The translations under genes were made by a program, and so were the position numbers. The notes under the pieces are model-generated. The model saw nothing but the letters and a program-made list of their open reading frames with translations, was not told the DNA's origin and ran no database searches. 64,000 nt of DNA from NCBI GenBank assembly GCA_032718475.1, contig JAUCBJ010005827.1, positions 1-64,000 of the forward strand, read 5' to 3'. The stretch is from Nemertoderma westbladi. Its lineage: Eukaryota; Animalia; Xenacoelomorpha. This document shows, piece after piece, positions 4,197 to 28,139 of this stretch (position 1 is the stretch's first letter; every line of letters starts with the position of its first letter).

Positions 4197-4694
4197 TGTA
4201 AATAATCGCCAGGTTGTCGACCGGAATTTCTAACTTTCTGTACCCGTTTTTTGGGATCGAGACGTAATCTGCTGTCTTTACAGCACTCTGTCCAACCTCC
4301 CTCTAGCGGGAAGGTTGGCAGGCAATCTTAGGATCGAAACGTAGCTAACTGGCCACTCAGCAGTCTCCTTGGCTACCCCATCAGGACGCTTCCTGAGACG
4401 GTATTTAAGGAGCTGCTGGCCACTTTTCATCACTTCCAAGTCGACAACCTTTTCCTTGTGCAAACCCCTGCTTCAAAGTTTAGTGATTTAATTGTCTCCT
4501 CTTCTATTTCCTTATTATTCAACGAACTATTATAAATAAACTCAGTTATCGCGTTCACTCAAAATCAACTTTTTCAACCTTCACCTTACCCTTCTACCTC
4601 TACTTTGGGAGCCGTCACATAGTTGCACTCCCTTCGGCAACTGGGATTCTAAAATCGAAGACTCCCTGCATCTCTCAACGCCCAGTTCGCCACA
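4197..4694 (+). repeat. 3' LTR (498 bp)
   Basis: Starts TG directly after the PPT, ends CA where the 48-bp array resumes; TATA-like TATTTAA near 4402 and AATAAA near 4535. Confidence 0.8.
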
Positions 4695-5281
4695 ACTGGC
4701 ACCCTATTGGCTACGTACCAAGAACTCTGTATCTTTTAGTTTACTGGCACCCTATTGGCTACGTACCAAGAACTCTGTATCTTTTAGTTTACTGGCACCC
4801 TATTGGCTACGTACCAAGAACTCTGTATCTTTTAGTTTACTGGCACCCTATTGGCTACGTACCAAGAACTCTGTATCTTTTAGTTTACTGGCACCCTATT
4901 GGCTACGTACCAAGAACTCTGTATCTTTTAGTTTACTGACACCCTATTGGCTACGTACCAAGAACTCTGTATCTTTTAGTTTACTGGCACCCTATTGGCT
5001 ACGTACCAGGAACTCTATCTTTTAGTTTACTGGCACCCTATTGGCTACGTACCAAGAACTCTGTATCTTTTAGTTTACTGGCACCCTATTGGCTACGTAC
5101 CAGGAACTCTGTATCTTTTAGTTTACTGGCACCCTATTGGCTACGTACCAAGAATTCTGTATCTTTTAGTTTACTGGCACCCTATTGGCTACGTACCAAG
5201 AACTCTGTATCTTTTAGTTTACTGGCACCCTATTGGCTACGTACCAGGAACTCTGAATCTTTTACTGGCACCCTATTGGCT
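4695..5281 (-). repeat. 48-bp tandem array (about 12 copies) derived from exon 3' end plus 5' splice site
   Basis: Minus-strand unit gtacgt-AGCCAATAGGGTGCCAGTAA-actaa-AAGATACAGAGTTCTTG copies the exon end ...AGCCAATAGGGTGCCAGTAAAAGATTCAGAGTTCCTG|gtacgt. Confidence 0.95.
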
Positions 5282-5432
5282 CTCGTCCATCTACTGCTAG
5301 TTGTGTCCCTCTTCTCTACGAAATATCCGGTGACGCGCGACCCACCATTGTTATCCGGCGGTTTCCATCGCAACCCGATACTCTCCTGGGAGACGCTCAC
5401 AACTTCTGGAGTGCCTGGTGGACTTGGTGGAT
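5245..5432 (-). CDS. Ig/FN3 gene exon (FN3 N-half)
   Basis: ag|ATCCACC...TTCCTG|gtacgt; [42 protein letters not shown]...[13 protein letters not shown]. Confidence 0.9.
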
Positions 5433-8400
5433 CTAAAGAGAGAAAATATTAAAAGACTGAAAGCAACCGGCGGCGTTACATATCATCAACCAAGCACAAA
5501 CTTCGCATACACACAGTCGTCACACTATAACGCCAATCCTTATAATAATTTCTAACATACAATGCAATACAGACGAGGGAGTGGGCTGTGGTGCGTAAAA
5601 ATTAATGTACATAAATATAATATGATATGAATAATGTATCGTGTTGCTTTGATATTGTATGAACCGAAACAAATGAAAAAAAGGTACTTGAAATAAATTC
5701 TCACCTTAGAATGTAAATAACTACCTATAATTGCAAATAACTTTTTTGTACAGGAAATTAAAGATTGCCGCACCAGCGACTGTCAAACGATTTAGTATAA
5801 CCTGGAATTAATGATTAACTTACTCACCAAATTCATTTTTAGCGATAACCTTCGACCCACAAAGTGGTTCGGAAATACCGTATCTATTTTCAGCTCGAAT
5901 TCGGAATGTATAAGTGGAACCTTGGACCAGTTTGTGCACACTATGTTTGCATTTAGTGCAAAAACTACTAACCTGGAAGATAAAGGATGCAATTATTATT
6001 ATAGTAAACAGTATTAGTACACTTGTTATAGAAGTGGAAGCCGAATAGCTCTTAAAACAGGTGAACATCGCTTATTGTTAAATAATTAATAAAATAATTA
6101 GACGTAATTTTGTGTCATATTTCATAATAATTTGAATCTTGAAGACTTGAATACATCTCGCCCATATGCGATCACATATAATTACAACACTATAATTACA
6201 ATTATTAGCTATTATTTTACAATTATTTACTTATTGTGTGCCAACTATCTCTATTAGCATCTTTACTTACTTTGTGCCAACTATCTCTATTAGCCTCTTT
6301 ACTTACTTTGTGCCAACTATCTCTATTAGCCTCTTTACTTACTTTGTGCCAACTATCTCTATTAGCCTCTTTACTTACTTTGTGCCAACTATCTCTATTA
6401 GCCTCTTTACTTACTTTGTGCCAACTATCTCTATTAGCCTCTTTACTTACTTTGTGCCAACTATCTCTATTAGCCTCTTTACTTACTTTGTGCCAACTAT
6501 CTCTATTAGCCTCTTTACTTACTTTGTGCCAACTATCTCTATTAGCCTCTTTACTTACTTTGTGCCAACTATCTCTATTAGCCTCTTTACTTACTTTGTG
6601 CCAACTATCTCTATTAGCCTCTTTACTTACTTTGTGCCAACTATCTCTATTAGCCTCTTTACTTACTTTGTGCCAACTATCTATATTAGTCTCTTTACTT
6701 ACTTTGTGCCAACTATCTCTATAAGCCTCTTTACTTACTTTGTGCCAACTATCTCTATTAGCCTCTTTACTTACTTTGTGCCAACTATCTCTATTAGCCT
6801 CTTTACTTACTTTGTGCCAACTATCTCTATTAGCCTCTTTACTTACTTTGTGTCAACTATCTCTATTAGCCTCTTTACTTACTTTGTGCCAACTATCTCT
6901 ATTAGCCTCTTTACTTACTTTGTGCCAACTATCTCTATTAGCCTCTTTACTTACTTTGTGCCAACTATCTCTATTAGCCTCTTTACTTACTTTGTGCCAA
7001 CTATCTCTATTAGCCTCTTTACTTACTTTGTGCCAACTATCTCTATTAGCCTCTTTACTTACTTTGTGCCAACTATCTCTATAAGCCTCTTTACTTACTT
7101 TGTGCCAACTATCTCTATTAGCCTCTTTACTTACTTTGTGCCAACTATCTCTATTAGCCTCTTTACTTACTTTGTGCCAACTATCTCTATTAGCCTCTTG
7201 TTTCTCGATTATATAATTAGTTATTTCGGAACCCCCGTCATCCAACGGCGGCTTCCAACTCAATGTAACCGACTCGCCAGACTTCTCCACAACTTCTACG
7301 GGACCTTCAGGAGATTGCGGTTTATCTGCAATAACAATAATATTGAAGTAAAATAATGAGACCACGCAACAACCTTTGATAAATCAGAAGTAATTACAAT
7401 ATTTAAAAGTTGTAATTAAAAACTAATTAGCCAGGTCGAAAATAATGTGAAAAAGTACCAAAAAATAAAAATTCGTTTTGGTTTTGAAAGTTAGTTTATC
7501 CGTGCTTCAATGATTATAATTACATCTGATTGCTCAGTACATCAATATGAAGAAAAGTAGTAAAATTAAAAATTATAAAAATAAAATAATTAAATTAAAT
7601 TAAATTAATGACTAATAATTCACATTAGTTATTGGGCTATTTGTTCCATACTCGTATGGGAGACCCTAGGTGGGCACATTGTGGGAGGCCGAGATCCCCA
7701 CTGCAAAAAAAGTAACTAAATGGAAAACTGGAAAGTTTTGACTGGATGAGTCGAGCGAGTGTGAACTAAAGTAGTCAATAAAACTGTAACACCCACTCAC
7801 TGACCAATGCAATGTACCACTCGGTGATGTGTTCAGTGGTAACGACCCCACGGTAAAGTTGAGACGTGTGAGTCACGGTCTTTCGGCTGCTTGGTACCGC
7901 AAGCCTACAGATACTGGGCTCGTCCTTAACGTTACTGCGTGTGTCCAGAGTCATACAACCGCAGTGTAGTTCGTGTTATGTTCCATCGTAGTTTTAACGT
8001 CAGTAAGGGTGGGGATGGTTCCCAACTCCACACCGCTATTGGGGACACTTCTTGTCAATAACCAATATAATGATACGATGATCCAACGGGAGCTCACTGC
8101 TGTTCAAGCCTCTAGGGGGCGTGCGATCACTCCAAGCAGTAGTCGGTACTAGTGTGTTTTGTGCACAATCCCCCTCAAATTTTTATACTAGCTAGTTTTT
8201 GTTACTTTTTTTCTATAAAAATGTTCTAGAACATAAAATCTATTCATGTGACTTCGACCATTGATGGTTGTACAGACCCACAATCGATAGCCGACCGATT
8301 CGCCAGTATATATTCAGATCTATATAATCAACCGTATGATTCCGCTTTAGATTTCTTAAGATGGCAGATTTCCGATAAACTCGAAGGATGTGATTCAGCT

Positions 8401-11400
8401 GATTTCCCGAATATCACTCCGGATTTGGTCAGTGAAGACATAGGCTAAAAAGCTCTAAAACAGACGTAACTTTTGATTTTGATTCTGATTGCCTGATCAA
8501 TGGTCCTCCAGAATTATGTTCACATTTAAGTGTTTTGTTCAACAGTTTTCTCATTCATGGCTTTGTTCCACAGTTCTTACTGACGTGTGTCATTATTCCT
8601 TTCATAAAATATAAATTATGTGACGATTCCCTTTCCAGTAATTACAGGGCTATTGCCTTATCCTCCATTCTGATTAAGTTGTTTGAGTGGGTCATGCTGA
8701 TCTCGCAGGCTGAGTGCTTACATTTGGATGAGTTGCAATTCGGGTTCAAAAGTGGTTCCAGTACGTCCCAATGTACCTGGGCGGCTACAGAGGTTCTCGG
8801 TTTCTATTCTAGAAACGCAACTCCTGTATTTGGATGTTTTCTCGATCTATCGAAAGCCTTCGATATGGTTGTATGGTGCAAGCAATTTCTGGAACTTATT
8901 AAGAAGGGGTTTTCTCCTTTTTTCTTACGAACCCTGCTATGGATCTATAGTAATCAAACATGTTGCGTCCGCTGGAACAGCTTCCACTCCGAGTCATTTA
9001 TGTTAACGAACGGAGTTCGTCAAGGTTCAGTGGCATCTCCGATTCTGTTCTGTATTATATTGGATAAATTAATATCAAAACTGAGGTCATCTAAAGTTGG
9101 TTGTTATATTGGTTCTTTTTATTTTGGTATTTTCGGCTACGCAGAGGATCTTCTCCTTTTATGCCCTCCATAGTGGGACTACGGTTTATGGTCAAGTTAT
9201 GCGAGGAGTTCGCAACCGAACACCATCTCGTGTTTAGTAGTACAAACCCGAATCCGGATAAATCCAAATCCAAATGCATTCCTTTTGGGAGAGTGTGGTT
9301 TAAACCCACAGCGTCAGTAATGCTGAACGGGAGACCACTTCCTTGGGTCAGGGAGGCGTTGCATCTAGGAAACATGTTAGATTTCCAGAACACAATGGAG
9401 TCTGATATTATACGAAAACGGGGAAATGTATAGGAAAGCTCAATGCACTTCGGCAAGAATTCTATTTTTCTGATCCGTATGTTTTGAGTAATATTCAGCG
9501 TATTTATAGCACATCCTTCTACGGTAGTAATTTATGGAATCTTTTTTCTGCATCGTGTACTCGCATATCCACGAAGCTAAGGAAAATCAACTACTTTCGC
9601 TAAGAAAGATTTTCCTTAGCTGAGATGGTCTATTCATAGTGGGCTATTTTACTTGTGTGAGGCAGATTTGGGGTTTTTTGATAGGCGAAAAAACTAGCCT
9701 TTAAAAGTACCCTGAAATTTTGCATGTATATACTACTCGACGAGGCGCATCTTTTGGGCCGGGTCTCATATCCAGGAAAAATCTGGTTTCCATGGCAACG
9801 GACTTCAAAAAAAGTCTATGTATTTCAAGTCAATATTTATAACTCTATTTGTAGGAAAACTATAATAGATATAAACTTGGGGTTTCGCAACACAACTATA
9901 AGGTCCATAGCAGATCCGATTGAGGCTAAATAGAAAATCCAGTTACCTTGGCAACCGGGATAAACAGATGTTAAAATTTATAAAATGTTAATTTGAAGCC
10001 TAAGGGCAAGGTGTTATGACTTGGGACCAACCCCTACCCCCACTATATAACTTATTCTGCATCCGAATTACATTGTTCTATTTTTCAGTTACCATGACAA
10101 CCGCTGAAAACATATGTTTTTATTCAAAACTTATTCATTTGGACATAGACTTCACGATAAAATTTTACAAAACTGGGAATGTGTTATCTGGACCACTAGT
10201 TGGAACTTTTAGTGAAACTTAAATTATTCCAGAAATTTAGTTACCATGGTAACTGTAGTTTATTAAACTCTATATCATTCAAATCTATATTGATAACTCT
10301 ATTTGTAGCAAAACTGTAATATATATAAACTTGGGGTTTTGCAACTCATCTATAAGGTCCATATACAAACCGTTCGAGGTTAATTTGAAAATCCAGCTAC
10401 CATAGCAACAAGACTATACAGATGTTAAAATTTATAAAATGATAATTTGAAGCACAAGTTAATAGTATTATGACTTGGGACCAACACCTACCCCCACTAT
10501 ATGACTTATTCTGCATCCGAATTACATTGTTCTATTTTTCAGTTACCATGACAACCGCTGAAAACAGATGTTTTTATACAAAAATTACTCATTTGGACAT
10601 AGACTTCGCGATAAAATTTTACGAAACTGGTTATGTGTTATCTGGACCACTAGTTGGAACTTTTAGTAAAACTCAAAACATTCCAGAAATATCTAGTTAC
10701 CATGGTAACTGGAGTTTATTACAGATTATATCATTCAAGTCTATATTCATAACTCTATTTATAGAATAACCACAATAGATATAAACTTGGGGTTTCTCAA
10801 CTCAATGATAGGGACAATAGTCGAGCTTATTGAGGTTGATTAAAAAATCTAGTTACCAGGGCAACCATGCTAAACAGATGTTCAAATTTATAAAATGGTT
10901 ATTTGAAGCATAACTTTAAGGTATTACTACTTGGGACCAATCCCTACCCCCACTATATCACTAATTCCGCATCCAATTTATATTGTTCCATTTTTCAGTT
11001 TCCATGACAACCCCTACAAACAGACGTTTTAACAATTAAATCCTTAGTTTTGCACATTAACTACTCAATGAAACTGAATTGAAGTATGTGTCACCTGGAA
11101 CCACAAACCGGATCTTAATGTAAACCTCAGCAGTTCTAGAAAAGGTTTTAAAGGCATATGCCTCTTAACTCTGTAAAGCAATGTAGTGATGAGTCAAAAA
11201 GTGTTTAATTTTCCTTAGCTTCGTGGTTGCATTTCCTTTAGGAAATGCCTTTCTAGTACAGTTCATGGAATATTAATATTAGGATTATTTTCAGATTGCC
11301 TTTTACATCACATAGATATATTGTAGAAAATTTAATGCAGTTTAAACACCCCAGTATTATGTTATATTCAGGTTTTATAAGATTTTGTACCAGTTTAGTG

Positions 11401-14400
11401 CAGTCTGAAAAATCAAGCATTCGTTATTTAGCAAAATTATTTTTATATGATTGTCGTTCGCGAAGTGGGTGCAATTTACGTTCTATCACAAATCTGTGTA
11501 AAATACCTCTCATTAACTCGATCAATGTTACGCACGTTAATAAGTTGAACTACGTTCCTTTTGATGTAGCTGATAGATGGAAATTAGAATTGTGTAGGGA
11601 ATTAATTAATTGTCGTTGTAGCAATATTGATATACCTGGTTTTAATGTTGATGAGATTACTGATATCCTTAATTATATTACTACATGTTAGTTAAATATT
11701 CTTTATATTATTGCCTATAAATATTTTGTTCGATGCCGTGTCATTTACTGCGTGTTCTGTCAGTTATTCATATATAGTACAACATAGTACCGTGTACTAT
11801 GATTATTGTTCATTCATATGTACGAATCTCAATTAAATTAAATTAATATATCATTTTTGGAAACTAGTGTGTTTTGTGCACACCCCCCCCCCCCCCTCAA
11901 ATTTTTTTATACTAGCTAGTTTTTGTTACTTTTTTAAAAAAAATGTTCTAGAACAAATTGTCTATTCATTTTTTTTGTTAATTTTGATCTAGAACAAATA
12001 ATTATTGTTCTAGAACAAAATTAATTAATTAGGTATTTTTGAAGTTATTAAAGCTAGTTTTTTTTATTTTTTTTTTAATCTTCTAGAACATTTCGTCTAT
12101 TTAATTTTGTAAAACGTAATGTTCTAGAACAAATATTTTTTGTTCTAGAACATTTAAAAAAATGTTATTTTGAGGTGTTTTTTATTTGATTAGTAAGTGT
12201 TAAAAACAATTACTAACAACTACAAATTTTCATTGTAGCTAGTGATTTTTATTAAACATGTGATGCAAAGATAACATAGATTTAAAAAATTGACAAAGTT
12301 TACAAATTAGCTAGTTTTTTTGTTTTTTTTTGTTCTAGAACAAATAATATTTGTTCTAGAACAAAATTTTTATATTAAATGAATAGATAATATGCTCTAG
12401 AACATTTTTTTAAAAGGAAACAAAAACTAGCTACCGATAGTTTAAAAAATTTATACAAAGATAACATACAATATAAAAGGAAAAAGATAAACAAATTAAC
12501 TTGTTTTTTTGTATTTTTTGTTCTCTAGAGCAAAAAATATATGTTCTAGAACAAAATTTTTATATTAAATGAATAGATTATATTGTGGTGTTCGCCAGTT
12601 AATGGACATTTACAACATTATTGTTTACGTGGTTGCCGGGCAACCACCAGATATACACAGTTATCTGAGTACTGACTCACGGACAAGCAGCTTATACAAA
12701 TTAACCGTATCCTACCGGTACTGTTGTATTGTACGCCTATCTATGTGACATATGTCATCGCATTATTCAGTTATCGAATATTAATAAGAAAATATAATAT
12801 CGTTCAACTACTCACAATATTATGTTTGGGAATTAGCGTGACGCTAAAATATGTTGTAGAACATTTTTAAAAAAAAGGACTAGAGACAAACAAAAACTTG
12901 CTAGTATAAAAAATTTGAGTGGGGGTGTGCACAAAACACACTAGTACCAAAATTTTGTTCTAGAACAAATATTATTTGTTCCAGAACAAAAAAAAATAGC
13001 TAATTTGTTAATTTTTAAATTTTTTATTCTATGTTATCTTTGTAGGTAAGGCCGCGTTCACACTACCGAGTCAAAGTCAAAGTCAAAAGACAAAATGTAA
13101 ATCACAAAACATTTTTTCTAGAATCCCCTTAAAATGTATTATATTAGGCCTATATAATGTATTATTATTTATTATTGCTAGCTAACTATATTTATTTTAT
13201 TTTGACTTTGACTTTGACTTTGACTCGGTAGTGTGAACGCGGCCTAAAGTAGCGCTAGGTCCAAATCGGTATACCTTAGGTCCTGTAGCGTTAGGTCCCG
13301 TAGCTTTAGGTCCTGGCGCGTTAGGTCCTGTAGCATTAGGTCCAATAGCATATATCTGACTGTTGATTCTCTATTAATCTATTCACAATGTCCCTAACTC
13401 TCGTTTATTGTTTTGGTTTCTTTCAACTCGCCTCTGTAACCTGCTCCTTTACTAACCTGCCTGGTTTTGGAGGCAGACTGGACCTACTGACCTAATGCCA
13501 CGGACCTAACGCTACCAGGACCTAACGCCACGGACCTAATGCTACCAGGACCTAATGCCACGGACCTAACGCACCATCTCTTTGTATCACATATTTAATA
13601 AAAATCACTAGCTACAATAAAAATTTGTAGTTGTTAGTAATTGTTTTTAACACTTACTAATCAAATAAAAAATACCATAAAATAACATTTTTTTAAATGT
13701 TCTAGAACAAAAAATAGTTGTTCTAGAACATTACTTTTAAAAAAATAAATAGAAGATATCTTCAAGAACATTTTTTTAAAAAAATAAGGAAAACTAGCTT
13801 TGATAACTTCAAAAATACCTAATTAATTAATTTTGTTCTGGAACAAATTAATAAAAAAAATGAATAGATAATATGTTTTAGAACATTTAAAAAAAGTACC
13901 AAAAACTAGCTACCCGTTCCGTACTCGTTAGTAACTAACCTGTTACTGTAACGCTACCCGTTCCGTACTCGTTAGTAACTAACCTGTTACTGTAACGTTA
14001 CCCGTTCCGTACTCGTTAGTAACTAACCTGTTACTGTAACGCTACCCGTTCCGTACTCGTTAGTAACTAACCTGTTACTGTAACGCTACCCGTTCCATAC
14101 TCGTTAGTAACTAACCTGTTACTGTAACGCTACCCGTTCCGTACTCGTTAGTAACTAACCTGTTACTGTAACGCTACCCGTTCCGTACTCGTTAGTAACT
14201 AACCTGTTACTGTAACGCTACCCGTTCCGTACTCGTTAGTAACTAACCTGTTACTGTAACGCTACCCGTTCCGTACTCGTTAGTAACTAACCTGTCACTG
14301 TAACGTTACACGTTACGCCATCCGTTCCAAACTCGTTACTCAATCGCAACTCGTAGGTTCCCGAGTCGGAACGTTCACTCCGCGGAACAACCAAACTAGT

Positions 14401-17400
14401 CGAGTATTCCCTTGTATCCAAGGTAACCCGATTACTTTCAGAAGAAACGATCTCAGAGTCTTTCATCCATTCAACAGTTGGTGGCGGACTACCATCAAAT
14501 AGAACAGGAAGTCGAATTACGTCACCTTTTCTCACGATAAGATTTCGCAATCGACTGTCTATATCCAAAGATGGCCGAGCTAAATAAAGAAAAGTTGTTG
14601 AAGACATTTGCGGTTTTATCATGCAAAGTGGTTATTTTATGCCTCAATACTATATATTTTAATTAATTTGTAATTAAATGAAAAAAATGATTGTAACACT
14701 AATAAGACTGATTGACAGAAAGACCAACCTTTACTAGGTTTCGCCCGAATAGGTCTGTCTGTGAGACTGGGTTGGCTGGCCCCGACCTCGTTGATAGCGG
14801 ACACTCGGAACTCGTATTCCGCACCTTCGCTGAGTTGGTCGACCCTCGCTCGTGGATTCAGTACCGGGTCTCGCGTCACTCGTACCCATCTAATAATCCA
14901 AACAAACCTTCAATAAACTGAGTGCCAGATGCGCAATACTTAGCCGAGCTGTTCTAGGGGTCTCAACCTCGAATGATACGTTTGTTTTATCGAGAATAAC
15001 TTACGTACTTTTAAACCAGGTATTAGTGTAAAAAAAATTTGAATCAAGTAATTTTATATCATTTATATTTATTATTTTTTATATTTTTATTTATAGTTGT
15101 TTAACAGTTCTTTTAATGATAAATCTTAGTTCCTATAATAACAAACTCCACGAAAAGACAGCTTGCCAACACCCTGTTAATTAAGGTATACACAATAAGG
15201 TTGACAACAATTATTAATGATTGTATATCCTTAAGTATCATCAGTGACATAAATAGATATTTTTTTATTTTGGTCTGTGGTACAGTTAGATTTTGACGAT
15301 TGTTCCATTATTGTATTGTGTGGTCGTTTTTACAATAATTGGGCCATAAGTTTTGGATATATAATAAAAAGCCACATCAACTTGACATAATCCCCAGTGC
15401 AAGTGTCATAGTGTCTCATTTGTATAAATACTTGCCTTGGAGAAGATATATCACGTTTCTCCACAAGGTAACCTGTGATTGGTCTACCTCCATCTCTCCG
15501 TGGAGGGTCCCAGGACAAAACGACAAAGTTTTTATTAACATCCTCCACTTCTGGTGTCCCGGGTGGACTGGGGACTTCTGTAATTTAATTCATACAAATA
15601 ATTATTTACTTTGTGGATTCAATATATTCACTAAGTATAGTCAATTTCACAGTACAAACTATTCAATTAATACTAACCATGTCATATTGCTAACAATCAA
15701 ATAGAATAAATATATAACATTATTAACAATCTTATTAGTACTAAATTATCTAACATCAATAACTAACAGAACAATCTAACATTACTAACCAAACATATTC
15801 TTTGCTGTAACAGGAGTGCCTAGCAACGGCTCGTCACAGACTCCCATATCATTCTCAGAATAAACTCTAAACTCGTAATCATTATTCTCGGTTAATCGTG
15901 GAACCTGGAAAGAAGGGAATATGTAACAGTAGGACAGATAACTCCACAAATATAACCTTATATTGAATGGATATGCGGCCCAACAGCTCAATTACTATTA
16001 ACCTACCTTATATGTAGTTCTACTAGCCGTGCTAGTAACTCGAGTCCAGTCACCGTTCCGCGTTTTATCCCGTTTCTCTACGATGTAAGTTAGATCCGAG
16101 TAGCCGCCGGTGTACTTAGGGGGTTTCCATTCCAAGGTGATCGCATCCTCAGTACGGACTGGGTACTCTAAAGGTCCTTCTGGGGTTCCCGGCTTGTCTA
16201 AAAATGTTTGAGGAGAAAATATATAGCAAACAAAGAGAGGAAATATTAGAAATGTGAAAGATTAACAATTTAATGGAATAATCTTTTAGGCTCGTTAGGC
16301 CAAGGAATGCCTGTTCACCACCATGGGTGATCTTCCACAGTAAACACTTCTACTCTGTTTCCCAAAGGAATGCCTGTTCACCACCATGGGTGATCTTCCA
16401 CAGTAAACACTTCTACTCTGTTTCCCAAAGGAATGCCTGTTCACCACCATGGTTGATCTTCCACAGTAAACACTTTCACTCTGTTTCCCAAAGGAAGGCC
16501 TGTTCACCACCATGGGTGATCTTCCACAGTAAACACTTTCACTCTGTTTCCCAAAGGAATGCCTGTTCACCAACATGGGTGATCTTCCACAGTAAACCCT
16601 TCCACTCTGTTTCCTAAAGGAATGCCTGTTCACCACCATGGGTGATCTTCCACATTAAACTCTTCCACTCTGTTTCCTAAAGGAATGCCTGTTCACCACC
16701 ATGGGTGATCTTCCACATTAAACCCTTCCACTCTGTTTCCTAAAGGAATGCCTGTTCACCAACATGGGTGATCTTCCACAATAAACCCTTCCTCTCTGTT
16801 TCTTAGAGGAATGCCTGTTCACCACCATGGGTGATCTTCCACAGTAAACCCTTCCACTCTGTTTCCCAAAGGAATGCCTTCACAACCCAAAGAACTAAAT
16901 CTAAATATTAGATTTAGTTACTCAAATAGTATTCAGGTATAAGAAAACAAGCGCGAAATCGCGCAAAGGTCCGCATCTACTAACGCATTAACTGACTCCT
17001 TCAATGGCTTACTAACAATCTTACAACAAAAAAATTATGTTTATAACTCAGTGGCTCTGCCAACTGAGCCACTGGGATCGTATCAAACCCTAATACTAGA
17101 GGTGTCGCTACACGGACATAAAAATTACTAACCAAGAACAGTGACTTTAACATCCAGTTCAATGTCACCAAGTTCATTGGTGGCTTTAACTTTGTAAACG
17201 CCGCTGTCGTTTCCTGATGCGGACGTACAAACAACCGACGTCATTCCTCCAGTATCCTCTATGCGTAGACGGTCATTGGATATTAGTGATCGCGTCCCGT
17301 TGAACCACTCAATGTGCGGGGGTGGGGATCCATGGTAACTAATATCTATGTGGAATGGGTTTCCTTTCCGAACTGTAATATTTTTAATTCTAAAAGGAAA

Positions 17401-20400
17401 AACAGGAAAAGTTTAAAAAATAACGTTAAGGTAAATTTGTGTCGAATCGAATTTGTACCGGTCGAACCAGTAAATATCCGAATAAGATATCATAATATAA
17501 TTATTATGATTCAATGATGGACGTATATATACATCAAAATACATGGATGTATCACTTTGCAATAATACCTCATTTAAAAGCGACAAAGATTTACGAAATA
17601 GCTAATATTATATTTTAGAGGGATTCGTAAATTTTGAATAAATTGAAAAATCCTGCAACTTGTATTTATTTGGTTGAGTCGCGTTGATAATTAGTTAACT
17701 TACCTAGGTTGCATATCAAGAGATGGTCGTGACGCCTGCGCCATGACCAGCACTGAGTCAGTGGGGGATGAGTAGGGGCCTGTCCCGGATGCGTTCTCGG
17801 CACAAACTCGAAACAGATACTCCTCGCCACGGACCAGATCAGGTACGCGGAATCTTAAAAATAATATAGAAATATTAGAAACGCGGGTCCCAAATAATTT
17901 TAAACATCGGAGTTTATTTACTCCAGATGATTAACCAAATGCAGTTAATCGCATTAGTTTTTGCATACTCTATAGTTAATCGCCATCTCATAATGATAAT
18001 CAATGCACTTGGCTTTGAATATCTGGTTATTTGTAAACTTTTAACTTACTCAGTCTCTTTTATTGGAGTTTTATTAGATTTAATCCAATCATCGGATCCT
18101 TTCTTACAATACTCGAGATTATACCCAGTGATTCTAGAACCCCCGTCATGATACGGTTTATTCCAAGTTAGTGTTACACTATTATCTGAGACGGCAGCCG
18201 GGTAGAGGCCAGAAGGCTCGCCAGGAGGACCTGAAATTCGGATAATTAATATTTAAAAAAATATAATAGGAACTTTTAGAATTAACCAAACCCAGCAACC
18301 CACCACCATCCCAGACTCATAAGGAGCAATCACAACTCACAAGGCTCACTGTTAACAGGCTCACAACTCACAAGGCTCACTGATAACAGGCTCACAACTC
18401 ACAAGGCTCACTGTTAACAGGCTCACAACTCACAAGGCTCACTGATAACAGGCTCACAACTCACAAGGCTCACTGATAACAGGCTCACTAGGCCACTTAC
18501 CTTTAGGTTCACTTGCTGTAATGACCTCAGATGGTTTACTAGGTTTGCTTGGTCCGGCCTTATTTACGGCTATCACTCTGAATTCATACTCGGAACCGTC
18601 AATCAAATCATCCAATGTGATTTCATTTGCTGCAATTAAATTATAATCAATTAATTGTATAGTGTCTGGAAATATTATCGTGTCACGTGTAATCTGTCCG
18701 TCCCCATGTCAGTCCTCCTACCCAGACATCTGTCCGTCAATGTTTTGAAAAACTTGTCCGAAACCCAACCTGAAACGGGGTGCCTGTTGGCGCGCAACCA
18801 ACCTGATACGGGGTGTCTGTTGGCGCGCAACCATCTTGGGCTGGTTGTTTCTCGTCGTTCCACTGTGTAGCCGGTAATAGGCGAACCGCCATCGTGCGAC
18901 GGAGGTTTCCATGCCAACGCGATAAATCCCTTCCCGGTGCGCGTAGATCGAGGTACTCCTGGTGCATCTGGGGGATCTAAAAAACAACAACAACAACAAC
19001 AATGCATAGCAATCAAATAAAAGATATATCTTTCTTAGAGCGATATATCTCTCCAAAGAGATCTCTTCCGCTGAGTAAGATATATCCATTCCAAAAAGAG
19101 AGATATTTTTCTTAGAGATATCTCTTTTGTAGAGTGATATATATTTCTACATATGCTTACTAGAGAGATAAACTATGTATTGAGTTAATAAACTAAGTAT
19201 TATTTCTTAAAGAAATATGTTTCTTAGAGAGATATCTTTCTTAGAGATAGACATGTTTCTTAAAGAGAGATATCTTTTTTAGAGATATATCTTTCTTAGA
19301 CATATCTTTTTTAGAGATATATCTTTCTTAGACATATCTTTTTTAGAGATATATCTTTCTTAGACATATCTTTTTTAGAAAGATATCTTTCATAGACATA
19401 TCTTTCCAAGAGATTATCTTTCTCAGAGATATATCTTTCTTAGAGATAGACATGTTTCTTAAAGAGAGATATCTTTTTTAGAGATATATCTTTCTTAGAC
19501 ATATCTTTTTTAGAAAGATATCTTTCATAGACATATCTTTCCAAGAGAGTATCTTTCTCAGAGATATATCTTTCATCTTTCTTAGAGAGATATCTTGCTT
19601 AGACATATCTTTTCTTAGACATATCTTTTCTTAGAGACATATCTTTTCTTAGAGAGAAAACTTTCTAAGAATGATATTATGTATTTCCAGATGGATTCTC
19701 CATCCCAGGATATCTCGTATCGTTCATGATATCATACCATAAGGATTCTTTGCCACCAATGTTGCGCCATCTAGCGGTTCACCGACGCCATACATATTTT
19801 CCGCGCGAATTCTAAACTGATATTCAGTTCCTTCAACGAGATTGCGAGCGCAGTAGGAGCACCTGGAAAAAACAGTAGGAGTGGAACTCTAAGCAAATTG
19901 TCTATCAAGTTGACAGCTTTACAGACTTACTTACTAGAGTGGGGTAGTGAGATTTGAAAATAGAAGACAACGCAGAATAATTACATATCGGTAAATATGA
20001 GAACGATTTTATATTAATTACGCATTTTATATAGAATTGAGTGTAGACTCATAAATTACAACTCGTTTCCTTGAGGGTCATAAAGAAAAATATATCGATT
20101 ATTGATGTTACTATACACAAAACTATCGGAACAGATAATGCCTTTTTACCTTAATGGTAGTAAAGGCATATCCATGATAAAAAAAGAACAGGAATAGCAT
20201 TTAAAATGTTTACAAAAAGATGGCAACTTACTTGGATAGAGTAGATGTAAGAGGAGCCCAGATCCCTTCCCGCCTCCCATCCCGTCTCTCAACCACATAG
20301 GCGAGAATCTCAGAACCCCCGTTGTCCTCCGGCGGTTGCCACGACAACATAGCACTCTCGTTCGTGACGTCAGACGCGACGAGTGGGCCACTCGGAGGTC

Positions 20401-23400
20401 CTGGTTTATCTAAATAAATTGAAATAAAACCGAATGTTAAACTGTTACGGTAAGCGCCATGAACCAACTCCAGTATAAATAGTTAAATGAATTTTAGTTG
20501 AGTTGATAATGCAAATATAATAAATGATATAATTTTAATATGATGATGCTCAGAGATGGAAAAAATGAGGAAGCTCACCATCGCTATACGTACGCTTCCG
20601 ACTTCCGAAGTACCCCGACTTACCCAACACCGATACCCCGCAGTCAGCCTCCTCCGTGCCCCGACTTACCCAACACCGATAACCCGCAGTCAGCCTCCTC
20701 CGTGCCCCGACTTACCCAACACCGATACCCCGCAGTCAGCCTCCTCCGTGCCCCGACTTACCCAACACCGATGCCCCGCAGTCAGCCTCCTCCTTGCCCC
20801 GACTTACCCAACACCAATACCCCGCAGTCAGCCTCCTCCGTGCCCCGACTTACCCAACACCAATACCCCGCAGTCAGCCTCCTCCGTGCCCCGACTTACC
20901 CAACACCGATGCCCCGCAGTCAGCCTCCTCCTTGCCCCGACTTACCCAACACCAATACCCCGCAGTCAGCCTCCTCCGTGCCCCGACTTACCCAACACCA
21001 ATACCCCGCAGTCAGCCTCCTCCGTGCCCCGACTTACCCAACACCAATACCCCGCAGTCAGCCTCCTCCGTGCCCCGACTTACCCAACACCAATACCCCG
21101 CAGTCAGCCTCCTCCGTGCCCCGACTTACCCAACACCAATACCCCGCAGTTAGCCTCCTCCGTGCCCGACTTACCCAACACCGATACCCTGCAGTCAGCC
21201 TCCTCCATACCCCGACTTACCCAACACCGATACCCCGCATGTAAAAGCTTTTGCGGAATTAGCTGGTTATTTTTCCCGCAAAGTACTCTGTAGTTGGTTT
21301 AACGGACATAAAAAGCCGTTTCCTTACTGTACCGGTGTTTTAGTGGACATAAAATCCATTTCTTCTGTATGTGTACTTTAGCGGACATAACTAGCAATTT
21401 TATGTCGCAATATGCTAAAATCCTCTTGACACAGTGTAGTTACCATGACGACATCAACAGCTGATATGTCCACGTGTAACATTTCTTTGTTCTTTGTTCT
21501 CTCTTTGTTCGGTCGACCAATCAGAGCGTTTTTTGACTCTGTGTTGGAGGTTGTATACAGAAACTCATGAATTGAGTCAGTATGTGTATTTTGTCCACAG
21601 CCAGAAGACCGGCTTTGGAACCTCTGTGTTTTCAGGCTTTAGCAAAACATTAAGTAGGCTTGATCATAGAAACGTATATCTGTTATCCTACTCAAACTAA
21701 TCAATGCAAATCATATTGTCAACTGCAAACACCGCATTTTTACTGCTATTTACTGTCGGTCATTAATTATATCGGTTGATGGAATATTATTATATTTGGA
21801 TAATATCGATCAATAATCAGAAACCCCAATCTTCTTGATATACTGAAGGTTAGAGAGACCGGTTACATATAACAATTGCGACTTACATTATATTGGTTTT
21901 GGAGTGAATCTAATGCTATTTCATAGGCACTACATGAGTCGGTTGCTGTTCTCTTTATATGTGACTAAAATTAGTGAAGGTCGGCAGATCGGTGTGCAGC
22001 ATTGTGCGGTAGTGTGCAGGATTGTGACTGATAACAAAGCATCTCCTAAAGAATGCGCTTTATACGTGAATCCATAGCCGTCCCGTTGTGTCTAGTGTAA
22101 GTCATAACTCTGTTTACATATTTAGAGCGCCACGTCCTAAAGGAACTGTTAATATTTCCCGAAAGTGAATAATATTTGTCAGAAATTATATATTAACGAT
22201 CAGTCGAATAATACAGTAGGCCTACACCGCAATAAGGTCAAGCTTCCGAATCCAGTCTCCCGGGTATATCCAGCGGGTGAATGGTCGCGCATAGACTGGC
22301 TTCGGCTAATGTAGTGTATCAAATACTCGTCATAGGCTAAAGTCGATTTATAATCTAGAAGACATCCAAATTTGGCAGGTTAAACTGCTAAAGGTCTAAA
22401 AGCGCGAACACCGCAGTCAGCCTCCTCCGTGCCCGACTTACCCAACACCGATACCCTGCAGTCAGCCTCCGCCGTGCCGAACTCGTTCTCCAATAGTAAA
22501 CGATAAACCCCGCTGTCCGAGCGTTGACTCCTTGTTGTCTGGACAACCGTGGATAGACTGGACGTGTTGACACCGACCCTGTCGGTAGGTAACAGGACGC
22601 GAGTGTCCTTGGTCCAGGTCGCCTTGGGAGCGGGAGATCCCTCGATATCGCACGGAATACGGAATGTATCGCCGGCGCGCACTGTTAGGTTTCGCAGACG
22701 GGGGTCCATCTTTATTTCCGGTTTGCCTAAATCCCAAACAAAACAATTAAAATCTCAAATTTAGTCAGTAAAGTGATGTATTTTATAAACTACTACACTA
22801 CACAGTACATTAGAACACAGATATCGGCTCTTTTATGTAAAAATTAACTGTAGTTATCAATGAACGCGAAACAAGAAACAGCGAAAGTAACCCAGGAGGC
22901 TTCTCTCTCATAAATGCTCCTATAAGACGAGCCGGACTCCACACTAACTCTCAAGGTTAAACATTCGCTACAAGGTTCTATTATCGCTGGGTCGGCCCAC
23001 GTGATCTATTAATAGTATTTCTGGCACTGTTGGAAACAAATCCCCGTCACAACTAACAGGTAGATTTACAAGCAGCCAGTTCGGCGACCATCTCTAGTCC
23101 TGTATCCATAAGAAACCGAAAAAAAATTACCAATTCATTTGCGTAGAAATAAAGTTACTTTTTATTATTGGGCTTTGAGTCTTACATTTCATAGGTTTTA
23201 CGCGAATTGGGTGGGGCGTTTCGCACGGAGCCGATTCACCCGCGGCATTGACGGCCATCACACGGAACATCTGTTCCGAGCCCTCCTGGAGGTTGGGAAC
23301 GGTGAAGCTGGTGCCGTCCACTGGTTGCGGGGTAACGCGTTGCCATCGCGACGCCGTGACGTCACGTCGCTCAACGACGTAGCCCGTAATCGGTTTGCCG

Positions 23401-26017
23401 CCGTCCGAATGCGGCGGGTTCCACTCCAATGTGACCTAAAACACAAAATAAAACAATAAGTTTAATGGAAAGTTTCAGAAGATAAGAGTTTGCTTTAGTT
23501 CAATATAACAACAAAAAATATACGAACTTCGACAAAGCAACAAGTAATTAACTTATAAAACCGCAATTAAAAACAATTAATGAACCAATATAGGCCCCAG
23601 TGATGGCCAGTGGAGGGGCCAAGAAAACTCACGTGACGTTGCGCGGACTATAGTCTTACAGGAGGGGTATAGATGATGATGATGTGATTTAGATTTGATA
23701 CAATCAAGCCAACATTTCAAGTTTCATGTGAGTTTTAAGTTAAGATTAAGTCATTTTAAATTGTAATTAGGGATTATGGTTGCAAATTATTTCTGACACC
23801 TTATATGGGAACCAATTCCAGTGCGCCAAATGGAAGGCTTTTTGTAATTACTACCAGATCCATACTGTAGGCCTACAACCAGATCCATACTGTAGGCCTA
23901 CAACCAGATCCATACTGTAGGCCTACAACAACTAATTCCAGGATTTCGCAGGGATTAGAATATTGAAACTTACTGAATCCCGAGTGGAATCGATGCATTC
24001 TAGATCGCTAGGTGGCGCTGGGACATCGAATTGGTTTTTGGCTACTATCTTTGCGCCCTCTAGCGGTGCCGATGTGCCGTACTGATTCTCGGCTGAAACA
24101 CGGAATTGATATTCGTGACCTTCTAACAACTTCGGGACAGTGAAAGTTTTCCTGAGGGAGAAAAAAAAACGTTCCATAATTAAACGATCTGACATACAGT
24201 AATAAATGGTTTTTGAATAACTACAAAAATATTTGATATAAATTTTCTCTACTTATCCAACATTTGTATGGAAAACTTTTAGACTTCAAAGCAAATAAAA
24301 TTTTCTGAGCAAAAATTTGAAAGAAAAATACAAACAAAATTCTGAGAGAGTTGCAATTTCAGGGTTATAACCCTCAGTTTTCACTCAGTTCTGAACGCTA
24401 AAAACTGGAAGGTATACTTTTTGTTTTTTATAGAACAAAATGTTGAATTTCCATAGGCGCGCACCGTTCCGTTACCATAGCCACCCACTACTGCAATGCT
24501 AACGTTATTATTAAATAGTAAGTAACCTGGAACAAGTGCTAGTAACCGGCACCCAGTGGCCCTTCTTCACGTCCATTTTCTCCACTACGTAGGTGATATC
24601 TGGAGCGCCGCCATCATCGTCAGGGGCGTTCCAGCTGAGGGTGGCTGAGTCTTTGGATATATGGTCGTACCTCATTGGTCCTTCCGGGGGTGATGGTTTA
24701 TCTATATGAACAAATTATGTTATATTCAGAAAATTATACAATTTTGATATTATTTACTGTAAAATTAATTTAAGAATATTAAATAAATAAATATTAATAA
24801 GTAAAGATTTAAAGAGACTATAAAACAGACAAAAAGAGACAGATTAATTATTTCAATATATAATTCGTTATGATTTAGTCTAAATAATTAAACAACTATA
24901 AGTGAGCACTTACCCACCATAAGTGAGCACTTACCCACAGTATAAATGAGCACTTACCCACCATAAGTGAGCACTTACCCACCATAAGTGAGCACTTACC
25001 CACCATAAGTGAGCACTTACCCACAGTATAAGTGAGCACTTACCCACCATAAGTGAGCACGTACCCATCATAAGTGAGCACTTGCCCACCATAAGTGAGC
25101 ACTTACCCATCATAAGTGAGCACTTACTCACCATAAGTTAGCTCACTTAACCACAATAAGTAAGCACTTACCAACTACGGTAACGTTTGAAGTAGCCTCT
25201 GACGACCCCATCTGATTGGTTACAGTAAGCTTGTAAGGACCGCTATCAGAGCGCTTAGAGTGTTCTATAACCAATCGGGAGTTAGTATCGGATGACGTCA
25301 CTGTTACTCTGCTGTCAGCCCTAACCGACCGCCCATTAACCAGCCAATCAGCTGTGGGGGCGGGGCTGCCACGGAATGAGGCATCTACATCTATAGTTTG
25401 TCCAGCTCGTACAACCACATTCCTCAGTCTGGGATCCATAGTGATAGAGGGCAGACAGGGCGGCGCCCGGACAGTGAGTAAGTCTGTTGGCGCACTCGGG
25501 TCGCCCAGACCCTCTTCGTTCTCAGCCCGAACCCGGAACTCCAATTCTTCGCCCGGTTTCAAACCCTTCACTTCACAATGTGTCTCCGGAATCTTTATGA
25601 AAAAAATAATAAATTAAGTGTTACACTGTAAATGGATAAAAAGTTATAATTTTTTTACAGAATTATTAAGTATTAATTATTGACTTAAAGGATAAAAAAA
25701 ACAAATAAAACAAAGCGAAATATGAGTAATTAGTCTAACATTTCTTTAACCACTTAAACCCGATATTTTGAACTTTTTCTCGCCATACTGTATAGGTAAA
25801 AACCGCATTCATAATTTATTAAATTTCCATTTTATTCCCATTAATCCACTTACACTTCCCACGATGCAGGGTTCCCATTCCCCTTGGGGAGACTTCTTCT
25901 CCACTACGTAACCAGTTATCTTAGCTCCCCCGGTGTCTGTCGGTCTCTCCCAGCTCAAACTCACGGAGTTGTCTGTCACGCCATCTACCGTCGGTTTAGA
26001 TGGACTACCGGGCTTAA
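5245..26017 (-). CDS. Titin/twitchin-family Ig/FN3 muscle protein, partial (21 exons, about 1350 codons, both ends open)
   Basis: 21 exons with GT(GC)-AG ends and matching phases; FN3 motifs (PxPPxxP..LxWxPPxxDGGSxITGYxVEK..YxFRVxAEN) and I-set Ig motifs (GSPxPxxxW..DSGxYxL..N..G). Order: FN-Ig-FN-FN-Ig-FN-FN-FN-Ig-FN-FN-Ig-FN-FN(part). Confidence 0.93.
5828..5972 (-). CDS. Ig/FN3 gene exon (FN3 C-half)
   Basis: VSSFCTKC...[23 protein letters not shown]...KNEF; phase 0 to phase 1. Confidence 0.9.
6233..7198 (-). repeat. 36-bp tandem array (about 27 copies, 26 GTAAGT donors) of exon end plus 5' splice site
   Basis: Unit gtaagtaa-AGAGGCTAATAGAGATAGTTGGCACAAA reads in frame as [12 protein letters not shown]; donors at 7170, 7134 ... 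6270. Confidence 0.97.
7171..7325 (-). CDS. Ig/FN3 gene exon (FN3 N-half)
   Basis: [52 protein letters not shown]|gtaagt. Confidence 0.9.
9568..11256 (+). mobile_element. Non-autonomous Helitron-like element with subterminal inverted repeat
   Basis: 5' TC, 3' CTAG, inserted between A (9567) and T (11257) without TSD; hairpin GCATTTCC-ttta-GGAAATGC (11229-11248); 19-bp IR CCACGAAGCTAAGGAAAAT at 9569 and ending at 11226. Confidence 0.85.
9780..11130. repeat. About 454-bp tandem repeat x3, built from ~150-bp subunits
   Basis: ATGACTTGGGACCAA at 10016 and 10470, with a degenerate copy near 10925; one GTTNCCATGGNAAC-like motif about every 150 bp. Confidence 0.9.
11862..13910. repeat. AT-rich foldback / inverted-repeat complex rich in TGTTCTAGAACA palindromes
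   Basis: 11862-11960 is inverted at about 12860-12945; about 12000-12290 is inverted at about 13580-13860; a direct copy of the left end occurs at 8148-8247. Confidence 0.7.
13050..13244. mobile_element. PIF/Harbinger-type (Tourist-like) MITE, 195 bp
   Basis: Perfect TIR GGCCGCGTTCACACTACCGAGTCAAAGTCAAAGTCAAA, TAA TSD on both sides. Confidence 0.88.
13909..14310 (-). repeat. 44-bp tandem array (about 9 copies) of rearranged exon end plus 5' splice site
   Basis: Unit gttagttact-AACGAGTACGGAACGGGTAGCGT-TACAGTAACAG versus exon ...AACGAGTTTGGAACGGATGGCGT...TACAGTGACAG|gttagt. Confidence 0.93.
14292..14579 (-). CDS. Ig/FN3 gene exon (I-set Ig)
   Basis: [19 protein letters not shown]...[12 protein letters not shown]...[17 protein letters not shown]...VTVT. 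Confidence 0.92.
14729..14889 (-). CDS. Ig/FN3 gene exon (FN3 C-half)
   Basis: [41 protein letters not shown]; phase 2 to phase 1. Confidence 0.9.
15436..15577 (-). CDS. Ig/FN3 gene exon (FN3 N-half), GC donor
   Basis: [47 protein letters not shown]; CCAAG|gcaagt is needed for phase 2. Confidence 0.85.
15790..15904 (-). CDS. Ig/FN3 gene exon (FN3 C-half)
   Basis: [38 protein letters not shown]. Confidence 0.9.
16007..16197 (-). CDS. Ig/FN3 gene exon (FN3 N-half)
   Basis: [43 protein letters not shown]...[14 protein letters not shown]|gtaggt. Confidence 0.9.
16302..16880. repeat. 63-bp intronic minisatellite, about 9 copies
   Basis: AAGGAATGCCTGTTCACCACCATGGGTGATCTTCCACAGTAAAC... at 16302, 16365 and onward. 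Confidence 0.93.
17133..17389 (-). CDS. Ig/FN3 gene exon (I-set Ig)
   Basis: [31 protein letters not shown]...[26 protein letters not shown]. Confidence 0.9.
17704..17853 (-). CDS. Ig/FN3 gene exon (FN3 C-half)
   Basis: [28 protein letters not shown]...RPSLDMQPR. Confidence 0.9.
18050..18230 (-). CDS. Ig/FN3 gene exon (FN3 N-half)
   Basis: [60 protein letters not shown]. Confidence 0.9.
18330..18489 (-). repeat. 31-bp repeat x5 rich in GTGAG, starting about 12 nt downstream of a splice donor
   Basis: Plus-strand unit CTCACAAGGCTCACTG(T/A)TAACAGGCTCACAA. Confidence 0.85.
18501..18629 (-). CDS. Ig/FN3 gene exon (FN3 C-half)
   Basis: [42 protein letters not shown]. Confidence 0.9.
18803..18976 (-). 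CDS. Ig/FN3 gene exon (FN3 N-half); duplicated in-frame donor 33 nt downstream (alternative end 18770)
   Basis: [57 protein letters not shown]|gttgg, followed by a second [10 protein letters not shown]|gttgg. Confidence 0.9.
19020..19670. repeat. Degenerate AGATATATCTTTCTTAG-type low-complexity minisatellite filling an intron
   Basis: Dozens of imperfect TTCTTAGAGATATATCT / TAGACATATCTTT units. Confidence 0.8.
19738..19862 (-). CDS. Ig/FN3 gene exon (FN3 C-half)
   Basis: [41 protein letters not shown]. Confidence 0.9.
20232..20409 (-). CDS. Ig/FN3 gene exon (FN3 N-half)
   Basis: [43 protein letters not shown]...[10 protein letters not shown]. Confidence 0.9.
20613..21239 (-). repeat. 46-bp tandem array (about 14 copies) of exon end plus 5' splice site, separated from its exon by a solo LTR
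   Basis: Unit gtaagtcgggg-CACGGAGGAGGCTGACTGCGGGGTATCGGTGTTGG versus exon ...CACGGCGGAGGCTGACTGCAGGGTATCGGTGTTGG|gtaagtcggg; first partial copy at 22411-22441. Confidence 0.95.
21240..22410. mobile_element. Probable solo LTR (1171 bp)
   Basis: TGT...ACA termini, 5-bp TSD CCGCA (21235-21239 and 22411-22415), no coding capacity; removal restores one 46-bp repeat unit. Confidence 0.85.
22442..22726 (-). CDS. Ig/FN3 gene exon (I-set Ig)
   Basis: [40 protein letters not shown]...[26 protein letters not shown]. Confidence 0.92.
23186..23435 (-). CDS. Ig/FN3 gene exon (FN3)
   Basis: [25 protein letters not shown]...[22 protein letters not shown]. Confidence 0.92.
23974..24151 (-). CDS. Ig/FN3 gene exon (FN3 C-half and start of next FN3)
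   Basis: [32 protein letters not shown]...[18 protein letters not shown]|gtaagt. Confidence 0.9.
24527..24701 (-). CDS. Ig/FN3 gene exon (FN3 N-half)
   Basis: [58 protein letters not shown]. Confidence 0.88.
24897..25175 (-). repeat. 21-bp tandem array (about 13 copies) containing the 5' splice site
   Basis: Unit GGTGG|GTAAGTGCTCACTTAT begins at the donor GTTG|gtaagtgcttacttat. Confidence 0.9.
25172..25592 (-). CDS. Ig/FN3 gene exon (FN3 C-half plus Ig)
   Basis: [33 protein letters not shown]...[13 protein letters not shown]...[16 protein letters not shown]. Confidence 0.92.
25854..26017 (-). CDS. Ig/FN3 gene exon (FN3 N-half; most 5' exon found, begins in phase 1)
   Basis: [54 protein letters not shown]|gtaagt. 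Confidence 0.9.
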
Positions 26018-27013: not shown

Positions 27014-28131
27014 ATGGATACGAAGAATGATGAATTGGAGATCAAACTGAAAGATCTTCCTCCAGTTATACGTGCGTTGCTGACGGACGCCCGGAGATGT
27101 GCCTGGCCATTTCTTCCAAATATTTACGAGGGATACGAGAGAAGAGGTCCCATAGAAGTAAAGAAACAGTTTGACCTGAAGGTAGGTTGCTGGACTGGCT
27201 CTCGGTTTGAGTTGTTTGGATGCGGTACCCCGATCTCTAACCTAAAACATCTGAATTCGGACGGAATATATAATCCCAAACTGGTCTATTTTGGATCAAA
27301 ATCCCGAATGTAACAAATGGATTGAGATCCAAGATACGTTTCTTACTTTTCATGTTTAGTCACCATAAACTGACATATTTAAATTAAGAAAACAGTATGC
27401 TTAAATCCCGAAGAAAATTGGGTCCCGATAGTACGAATCCCGAACTCGGATATCCCAAAAAGTCTAATCTGATCCTTTTTAAACTCTAATCCAAACCAAA
27501 TGTTGGAAATAAGACCCCAGAAGAAATAAATGATCACTGGGGTTAATACCCCGCGGGATCGCTGCAATTTAGAATTATTTATTCGCAATTTTCAGGATCT
27601 CCTTTCGACGCCGAACTCAATAAACCCTGGAAAAACTCAAATCGACATCCTCCAGGAATCATTGTTCCTCGCGATGCGGAGCAAATCGTACGACCAAACC
27701 GCCGCCATACTCTTCGTGATAGATCGGTACGCGTACTGGAAGGGGGCGAGTGACGAATTACTAAAAGTCGCGCAGCGCATACAGAAACACTCCCCTAACA
27801 CTCCGATCGCACCGCAGATAGTCATCCGCAGGGCGAGAGTGCTCGTCAGTAAGGGGTCGTTGCAGTCGGCGGAACGGATTCTAGTCGCTTTAATATCCTC
27901 CGGCATGGGGTTGACTCTGTGGCAGTACCAGACCGAGTCGGATTACCGTCTCGTTAAGGCGGTCTGCATACAGATACGAGGTCAGATCCGACTGAAACTC
28001 AGTTTGTGGAGAGAAGCGGCTGAGTTTATTCTTGATTCCATCGTAATGTACCGACAACTGGCACTCATCGATAGGAAGGGGATATCCGCCTCTTTGGGAC
28101 TGCTTGTCGATATTTACACTAACATATCAAA
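27014..28131 (+). CDS. ALPK1: Alpha-protein kinase 1-like, N-terminal ADP-heptose-binding domain; exons 27014-27181 and 27596-28131, 3' exons not found
   Basis: Matches the human ALPK1 N-domain as recalled: LPPVIRALL..WPFLP, LK|DLL, AAILFVIDR, TPIAPQIVIRRAR, VCIQIRGQI..KL.LW.EAAE, DRKGISASLG; GT-AG intron in phase 0; exon 2 ends AA|gtaagt. Confidence 0.88.
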
Positions 28132-28139
28132 GTAAGTTC

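Follow-up and report, generated by a model that had tools for sequence, protein, structure and literature searches.

Six of the 21 splice donors of a titin-like gene of Nemertoderma westbladi are spanned by tandem arrays that repeat the exon-intron junction, and none of the 21 acceptors is. The gene lies in the window, by which we mean the whole stretch of 64,000 nucleotides that was analyzed. These arrays are probably six independent exon-edge ("mirage"-type) minisatellites, which arose as slippage duplications across a donor, were later amplified, and persist as the first donor closes the exon. Each places between 2 and 26 intact GT copies inside the intron, and the extra copies are likely harmless, being removed with it. 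Arrays of this kind are known from lancelets and humans; here they are unusually dense and one-sided, and likely neutral.

The gene occupies 21 exons on the minus strand, running from 26017 to 5245, as determined from stop-to-stop frames and a reading of the junctions. Spliced together, the exons give 4052 nt, or 1350 codons free of stops, with AG at every acceptor, GT at 20 donors, and GC at one. Pfam I-set and fn3 call the Ig and FN3 domains of the encoded protein, in the order FN3-Ig-FN3-FN3-Ig-FN3-FN3-FN3-Ig-FN3-FN3-Ig-FN3-FN3(part). This order contains Ig-FN3-FN3 and Ig-FN3-FN3-FN3 blocks, a super-repeat of the titin/twitchin type, and the closest solved structure is titin (E value, 3.5e-66). 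The exon set (5245..26017) is further supported by a contig from run X5, described below. In protein searches, best hits stood at 35 to 47% over most of the query. On the basis of the super-repeat and the top match, we call the gene titin-like, a name that does not imply orthology; its kinase and its ends would lie beyond the window. Indeed, the gene extends past the 21 exons. The rest of the window (26018-64000), upstream of exon 1, yielded no additional Ig/FN3 exon, so that either a very long intron holds opposite-strand genes or the gene is broken here. The GC content is 51% in exons, 30% in unique intron sequence, and 46 to 48% in three uniform arrays away from donors. Once arrays and mobile elements are collapsed, native introns measure 102 to 524 nt, for a total of 6074 nt.

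TRF returns periods of 48, 36, 44, 33, 46, and 21 at donors 5244, 7170, 14291, 18802, 22441, and 25171, respectively. A unit-by-unit listing, whose copy numbers are those of the window sequence alone, counts 12 donors at 5244, 26 and a broken 27th at 7170, 9 at 14291, 2 at 18802, and 15 in register at 22441, with 13 units at 25171. TRF and the listing thus agree with the unit lengths, the lack of relation among units, and the range of 2 to about 27 copies given in an earlier sequence-only reading of this DNA. Its count of six donors and no acceptor was confirmed. Since the six units are mutually unrelated, the arrays had six independent origins, as was also proposed there. All six units contain the donor together with exon-side bases, amounting to 27 to 37 nt in five of them and 5 nt in the other, and the intron contributes 6, 9, 9, 3, 9, and 16 nt in the order listed above. 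The earlier reading had put the exon copy at 28 to 41 nt in five units; the five exon-heavy units stand and the length is revised. Matches within arrays reach 94 to 98% in five cases, with differences from the exon that are common to the units, and edge units (first or last) deviate at 7170, 22441, and 25171.

All six arrays were read on the minus strand. The array at donor 5244 (4695..5281) has a 48-bp unit made of 6 nt of intron, 37 nt of exon end, and a 5-nt insertion, and its far end meets a long terminal repeat (LTR). At donor 7170 (6226..7199), the 36-bp unit joins 9 nt of intron to 27 nt of exon end. The 44-bp unit at donor 14291 (13909..14338) consists of 9 nt of intron and an exon end copied from a 47-nt template; relative to the exon, a 12-nt gap and five substitutions are common to all units. 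The two-copy duplication at donor 18802 (18765..18833) has a unit of 33 bp, 3 nt from the intron and 30 nt from the exon end. At donor 22441 (20613..22478), a 46-bp unit comprises 9 nt of intron and 37 nt of exon end, and a 1171-bp insertion splits the second unit. The array at donor 25171 (24898..25176) repeats a 21-bp unit with 16 nt of intron and 5 exon-like bases, with 87% matches across its units. Two of the arrays show additional sequence features. The units at 14291 (13909-14291) start with GT, carry a perfect TACTAAC made at the duplication junction, and end in CAG; their borders read AG|GT and resemble recursive-splicing points, without a U-rich tract. In the 21-bp unit at 25171 (24898-25172), the donor bases fall within a short inverted repeat, TAAGTG-AG-CACTTA, and a hairpin formed by this repeat could hide them.

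Alignment of each exon end with the next 300 intron bases gave scores of 38 to 66 at 5 of the 21 donors; the remaining 16 did not exceed 20. Exon-end alignments of the same type stayed at or below 18 at all 21 acceptors. In a junction-spanning test, whose false-positive rate on mismatched pairs is about 0.1%, a score of at least 30 was reached by 5 of the 21 donors and by none of the 21 acceptors. This test finds 25171 and misses 22441 because the next full junction copy there is 1.2 kb away. It replaced both an earlier ungapped detector, which had missed 22441 and 25171, and a crude HSP-end test, which recovered only three of the window arrays and, at other loci, flagged 2 of 278 donors and 0 of 276 acceptors. 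A weak self-match at donor 15789 was rejected (p 0.04 as one among 21).

Independent reads bear on whether the arrays exist outside this assembly. For the region 5190-6310, three DNA runs from two studies yielded contigs of 48- and 36-bp units at depths of 270 to 480, with flanks at 9 to 35. Since depth is no copy number, these unit contigs establish multi-copy presence only; the same caution applies to the 36-mer contig, whose depth is 480 in run X1 versus 274 to 306 in X2 and X3, with 48-mer depth similar. Run X1 may be the source of the window, whereas X2 and X3 differ from it at about a dozen bases and so represent another haplotype. The 33-bp duplication at 18802 is spanned without differences by a single contig in each of X1, X2, and X3. 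Thus, the arrays at 5244, 7170, and 18802 are present in DNA runs of two studies and, where checked, are not assembly artifacts, a possibility that the earlier reading had raised. An artifact would fit the dependence of the exact copy numbers on the window only. Yet the unit contigs come from two studies, one of a different haplotype, the short duplication is spanned in 3 of 3 DNA runs, and units carry variants in common, which makes an assembly error highly improbable.

The arrays could instead be functional and tune this long transcript, whether as alternative-donor ladders, as decoys for U1, or as steps of recursive splicing. The 36-mer and 33-mer are in frame, and only 7170 and 18802 are able to add in-frame residues: the 7170 array stays open for 105 codons, and a second GTTGG donor at 18769, also in frame, would add 11 residues if used. 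At 14291, the succession of GT, TACTAAC, and CAG within each unit likewise points toward splicing. Observed splicing points the other way. Contig 25 of run X5 skips introns 19 and 20, the latter exactly; it joins exon 20 to a single 36-bp unit that continues into exon-19 letters, and its loose end at 5243 continues into new coding-like sequence. The run is labeled "DNA?", and the result comes from one contig of one run, in a format that loses rare forms. We infer that this contig derives from a transcript and that splicing starts from the first donor at both of the sites that it covers, 7170 and 5244, out of six. On the question of which GT copy is used, which the earlier reading had posed, the contig thus points to the first donor at both sites, and no use of a downstream donor at 7170 or 5244 was seen in this one spliced contig. 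The proposed role as an alternative-donor ladder is not borne out, given first-donor use even for the in-frame 36-mer and stops at four of six sites. Reading past the first donor, a stop is reached after 4 codons at 5244, after 1 at 14291 (where it is the second codon), after 20 at 22441, and after 9 at 25171. Moreover, a stop has arisen in one of the 7170 units, mobile elements break arrays, and the CAG of the 14291 unit lacks a preceding U-rich tract, unlike the true acceptors of the gene. A function of this sort is therefore unlikely. The arrays can mislead annotation, because two of them lengthen the reading frame.

The reading that we favor, neutral duplication followed by survival, can be laid out in steps. 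A short junction-spanning segment would first duplicate, helped by 2 to 4 nt of microhomology; the three junctions inspected carry AA, TGG, and TCGG. The intronic copy would then drift before a changed copy amplifies into a nearly uniform array, a step recorded in the sequence at 14291, 5244, and 22441; the 12-nt gap and five substitutions at 14291 and the 5-nt insertion at 5244 occur in all units, indicating that the copy drifted before amplification. The most upstream donor would be used and the rest would be silent pseudo-sites, as seen at 5244 and 7170 and as presumed elsewhere. Finally, an equivalent duplication at an acceptor would in many cases add its copies to the mRNA, and selection would remove it, so that arrays are left at donors only. 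First-donor use makes donor copies harmless and so acts as a survival filter, and the asymmetry does not by itself call for a targeted process. This filter is not absolute, since acceptor-side arrays exist (amphioxus BflGb6). The first-donor rule also has exceptions in the human genes 6-16 and CBS, which use extra donors (PMC1557585).

Mobile elements enter or cut three of the six arrays (5244, 14291, and 22441), as expected of unconstrained DNA, and by their sequence these insertions look like later events. The far end of the 5244 array adjoins a TG...CA LTR that follows a purine tract (4197..4694, plus strand) and forms the end of a retrotransposon remnant. The remnant has an integrase region at 2509-3927 with Pfam rve, Integrase_H2C2, and DUF5641 matches; from its domain order, we take it to be of the BEL/Pao type. 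The 1171-bp insertion in the 22441 array (21240..22410, minus strand) has TG...CA ends and is flanked by a 5-bp direct repeat, TGCGG. Judging from its termini, it is likely a solo LTR; no second copy was found in the window. The far end of the 14291 array joins a truncated foldback element via a common TAGC. That element is a large palindrome (11855-13912) with smaller palindromes nested inside and one end truncated at the array, and a related end occurs at 8145-8247. A 25-base pattern of the foldback end had 0 matches in metagenome contigs. Such contacts (the LTR at 4694, the insertion at 21240-22410, and the foldback end at 13909) would be expected if insertion or excision of elements broke DNA near donors and repair copied the flanking junction. 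However, the TGCGG target duplication falls within a unit of the 22441 array, which dates that insertion after the array, and no element is found at the ends of the arrays at 7170, 18802, and 25171. Damage by mobile elements is accordingly quite unlikely as the source of the arrays.

A further question is whether donors attract duplications. Outside mobile elements, the gene contains 11 arrays with a period of at least 20, and 6 of these span a donor, compared with 1.3 expected under uniform placement (p about 5e-4, or 1e-3 with acceptor hits purged); the 6:0 ratio of donors to acceptors alone gives a p value of 0.03. All of this comes from a single gene that was picked because it is odd, so such p values set an upper limit to the strength of the evidence. 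When seeds are weighted by GC, p rises to 0.005 to 0.05 for beta values of 5 to 20. A joint fit that includes GC leaves a donor factor of 6.8 for all 11 arrays (95% interval, 1.9 to 25; p 0.004) and of 9.9 for the 9 that remain without two AT-rich arrays (2.5 to 48; p 0.002). The right-hand breakpoints fall at intron positions +3, +6, +9, +9, +9, and +16 (uniform p 0.003), and three further arrays start 12, 44, and 67 nt past a donor.

These observations would be explained if duplications themselves favored exon ends, for example at a polymerase pause, an R-loop, or a nucleosome edge tied to U1 binding, with selection adding only the asymmetry. The excess of donor-spanning arrays, the 7- to 10-fold residual once GC is fitted, the breakpoint skew, and the three additional arrays near donors all lean this way. 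On the other side, the gene was picked post hoc from a very large scan and offers only 11 arrays, and the skew fades with GC weighting, the short intron part of the units then ceasing to stand out (beta 15, p 0.12; beta 10, p 0.043). Four other donors checked in the window (two ALPK1-like and two from short-chain dehydrogenase [SDR]-like genes) start no array, and array donors match 7 to 8 of 9 consensus positions versus 5 to 8 of 9 at the others, with no clear separation. We regard donor-biased mutation as a possible but less probable reading. Rather doubtful, in turn, is the specific form in which duplications in this animal arise preferentially at the exon-to-intron transition, with a breakpoint a few nucleotides inside the intron, and one donor in four of this long gene has thereby seeded its own minisatellite. 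If true, this would reveal a splice-donor-linked mutational hot spot and explain the origin of mirages. The earlier proposal of a targeted process rather than chance thus holds as far as donor arrays exceed uniform placement (6 of 11 versus 1.3); the asymmetry does not by itself require it, since a survival filter would also produce it.

Neutral duplication plus survival thus remains the reading that we think rather more probable. It accounts for the anatomy, the RNA result, and the absence of acceptor arrays, but only incompletely for the excess relative to intron interiors. That excess would have to be assigned to short native introns, the GC-richer exon seed, and the choice of an outlier gene, which is the weakest step; against it stand the donor factor that outlives GC correction and the fact that three of the five other arrays begin less than 70 nt from a donor. 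Should the excess at donors persist across the genome relative to a matched null, the sites at which duplications arise would be guided by gene structure. As a test case, the gene offers six independent arrays that range from a two-copy seed to 27 copies, with the exon template beside each.

For comparison, we took the best 80 of 477 titin-like matches, retained 78 loci, called their boundaries automatically, and removed duplicates. At a score of at least 30, the junction-spanning test found a junction copy at 2 of the 240 donors of these loci and at none of their 214 acceptors. At a score of at least 26, the same selection from the best 80 of 477 gave four donors and one acceptor; on inspection, one donor case (locus L029) looks genuine and two resemble chance matches. 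The rate of 5 of 21 donors here far exceeds that of 2 of 240 in these loci (uniform test; best 80 of 477 matches), which counts against the neutral reading, although short-read contigs break at arrays. The donor direction agrees in other animals, with numbers too small by themselves. Decayed two-copy duplications spanning a donor were observed in titin-like genes of other animals at L006:1828, L071:677, and L029:3228 (the same site as in L037). A candidate acceptor-side array in L044 was rejected, as it lies well before the true acceptor.

The sequence-only reading knew of no description of a systematic donor-only form, a claim that does not survive comparison with the literature: amphioxus mirages and five human donor cases are reported in PMC3087553 and PMC1557585. 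Mirages are tandem repeats that span exon-intron boundaries, both 5' and 3', in amphioxus Adh3 and globin genes; PMC3087553 describes normal splicing and unstable length, calls the origin unclear, and proposes a role in intron gain. The original Adh3 report is Canestro 2002, as cited in PMC3087553 and PMC3902484, and the latter adds troponin C and PGBD5. As in these amphioxus cases (Adh3, troponin C, the globins BflGb6 and BflGb9, and PGBD5), the units described here span the boundary and multiply the splice site. Adh3 mirage units measure 10 to 72 bp and, as here, show concerted evolution in a cluster with deviant edge units (PMC3087553 and PMC3902484). The amphioxus cases reported include both donor and acceptor sides, the acceptor-side example being BflGb6 (PMC3087553), whereas here six donors and no acceptor are affected within one gene.

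The five human donor minisatellites listed in PMC1557585 are F7 IVS7 (37 bp), 6-16, CBS IVS13, LMNB2, and PDGF. Their first unit spans the boundary and identical pseudo-donors follow, as in our gene. F7, LMNB2, and PDGF use the first donor only, and experiments on F7 show that the upstream-most donor is chosen; 6-16 and CBS use later donors as well. In these descriptions, the human genes carry one array each. In F7, most of the unit comes from the intron (33 nt, with 4 nt of exon), as in the array at 25171 and unlike the five exon-heavy units. The Rogers model of intron gain at AG/GT proto-splice sites (PMC2891723) likewise involves a tandem duplication that includes a splice site, and the units at 14291 and 18802 hold AG|GT. 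That model duplicates exon-internal sequence to create a new intron, whereas the arrays described here copy a donor into the intron that it already bounds. No new intron bounded by a duplicated site was found in the gene; all copies lie in existing introns, and the open frame needs no new exon. The accessible text of PMC10078293 held nothing specific to donor-spanning minisatellites, and we found no genome-wide count of donor- versus acceptor-spanning minisatellites in the literature covered, which included few subscription papers and no supplements.

The window contains 25 unrelated arrays with a period of at least 20. Within the gene, a 31-bp array of five copies (18330..18488, minus strand) starts 12 nt past donor 18500, which lies outside it, and has GTGAG motifs inside; its match to the exon end is not significant (p 0.46). 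Four more donor-free intron arrays occur on the same strand between 15051 and 23929: 23849-23929, 19203-19670, 16302-16879, and 15051-15094, at distances of 44, 67, 253, and 341 nt from a donor, respectively. The 63-, 31-, and 25-bp intron arrays were considered as old mirages and rejected, their matches to exons not being significant (p 0.09 to 0.81).

Upstream of the titin-like exons, an ALPK1-like gene is represented by two exons (27029-28132, plus strand) that encode the N-terminal domain, with an E value of 2.7e-39 to the solved ALPK1 domain. Later exons of this gene were not found in the window, and a retrotransposon remnant comes after 27029-28132. No support was obtained for a 41-bp array (32424) or a 31-bp array (30082) as donor arrays of the ALPK1-like gene. 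Further along, two first exons resembling 15-hydroxyprostaglandin dehydrogenase, of the SDR family, are 93% alike (43382-53656 and 55628-55847, plus strand). The first of these genes has a 9.4-kb intron full of LINE elements; near 53422, the gene may also contain an in-frame GT-AG micro-intron of 36 nt. Retroelement frames at 39346-42495 and 50097-52733 (both on the minus strand) hold in-frame arrays of their own (30 bp by 50 and 72 bp by 5), in which the reading frame is kept.
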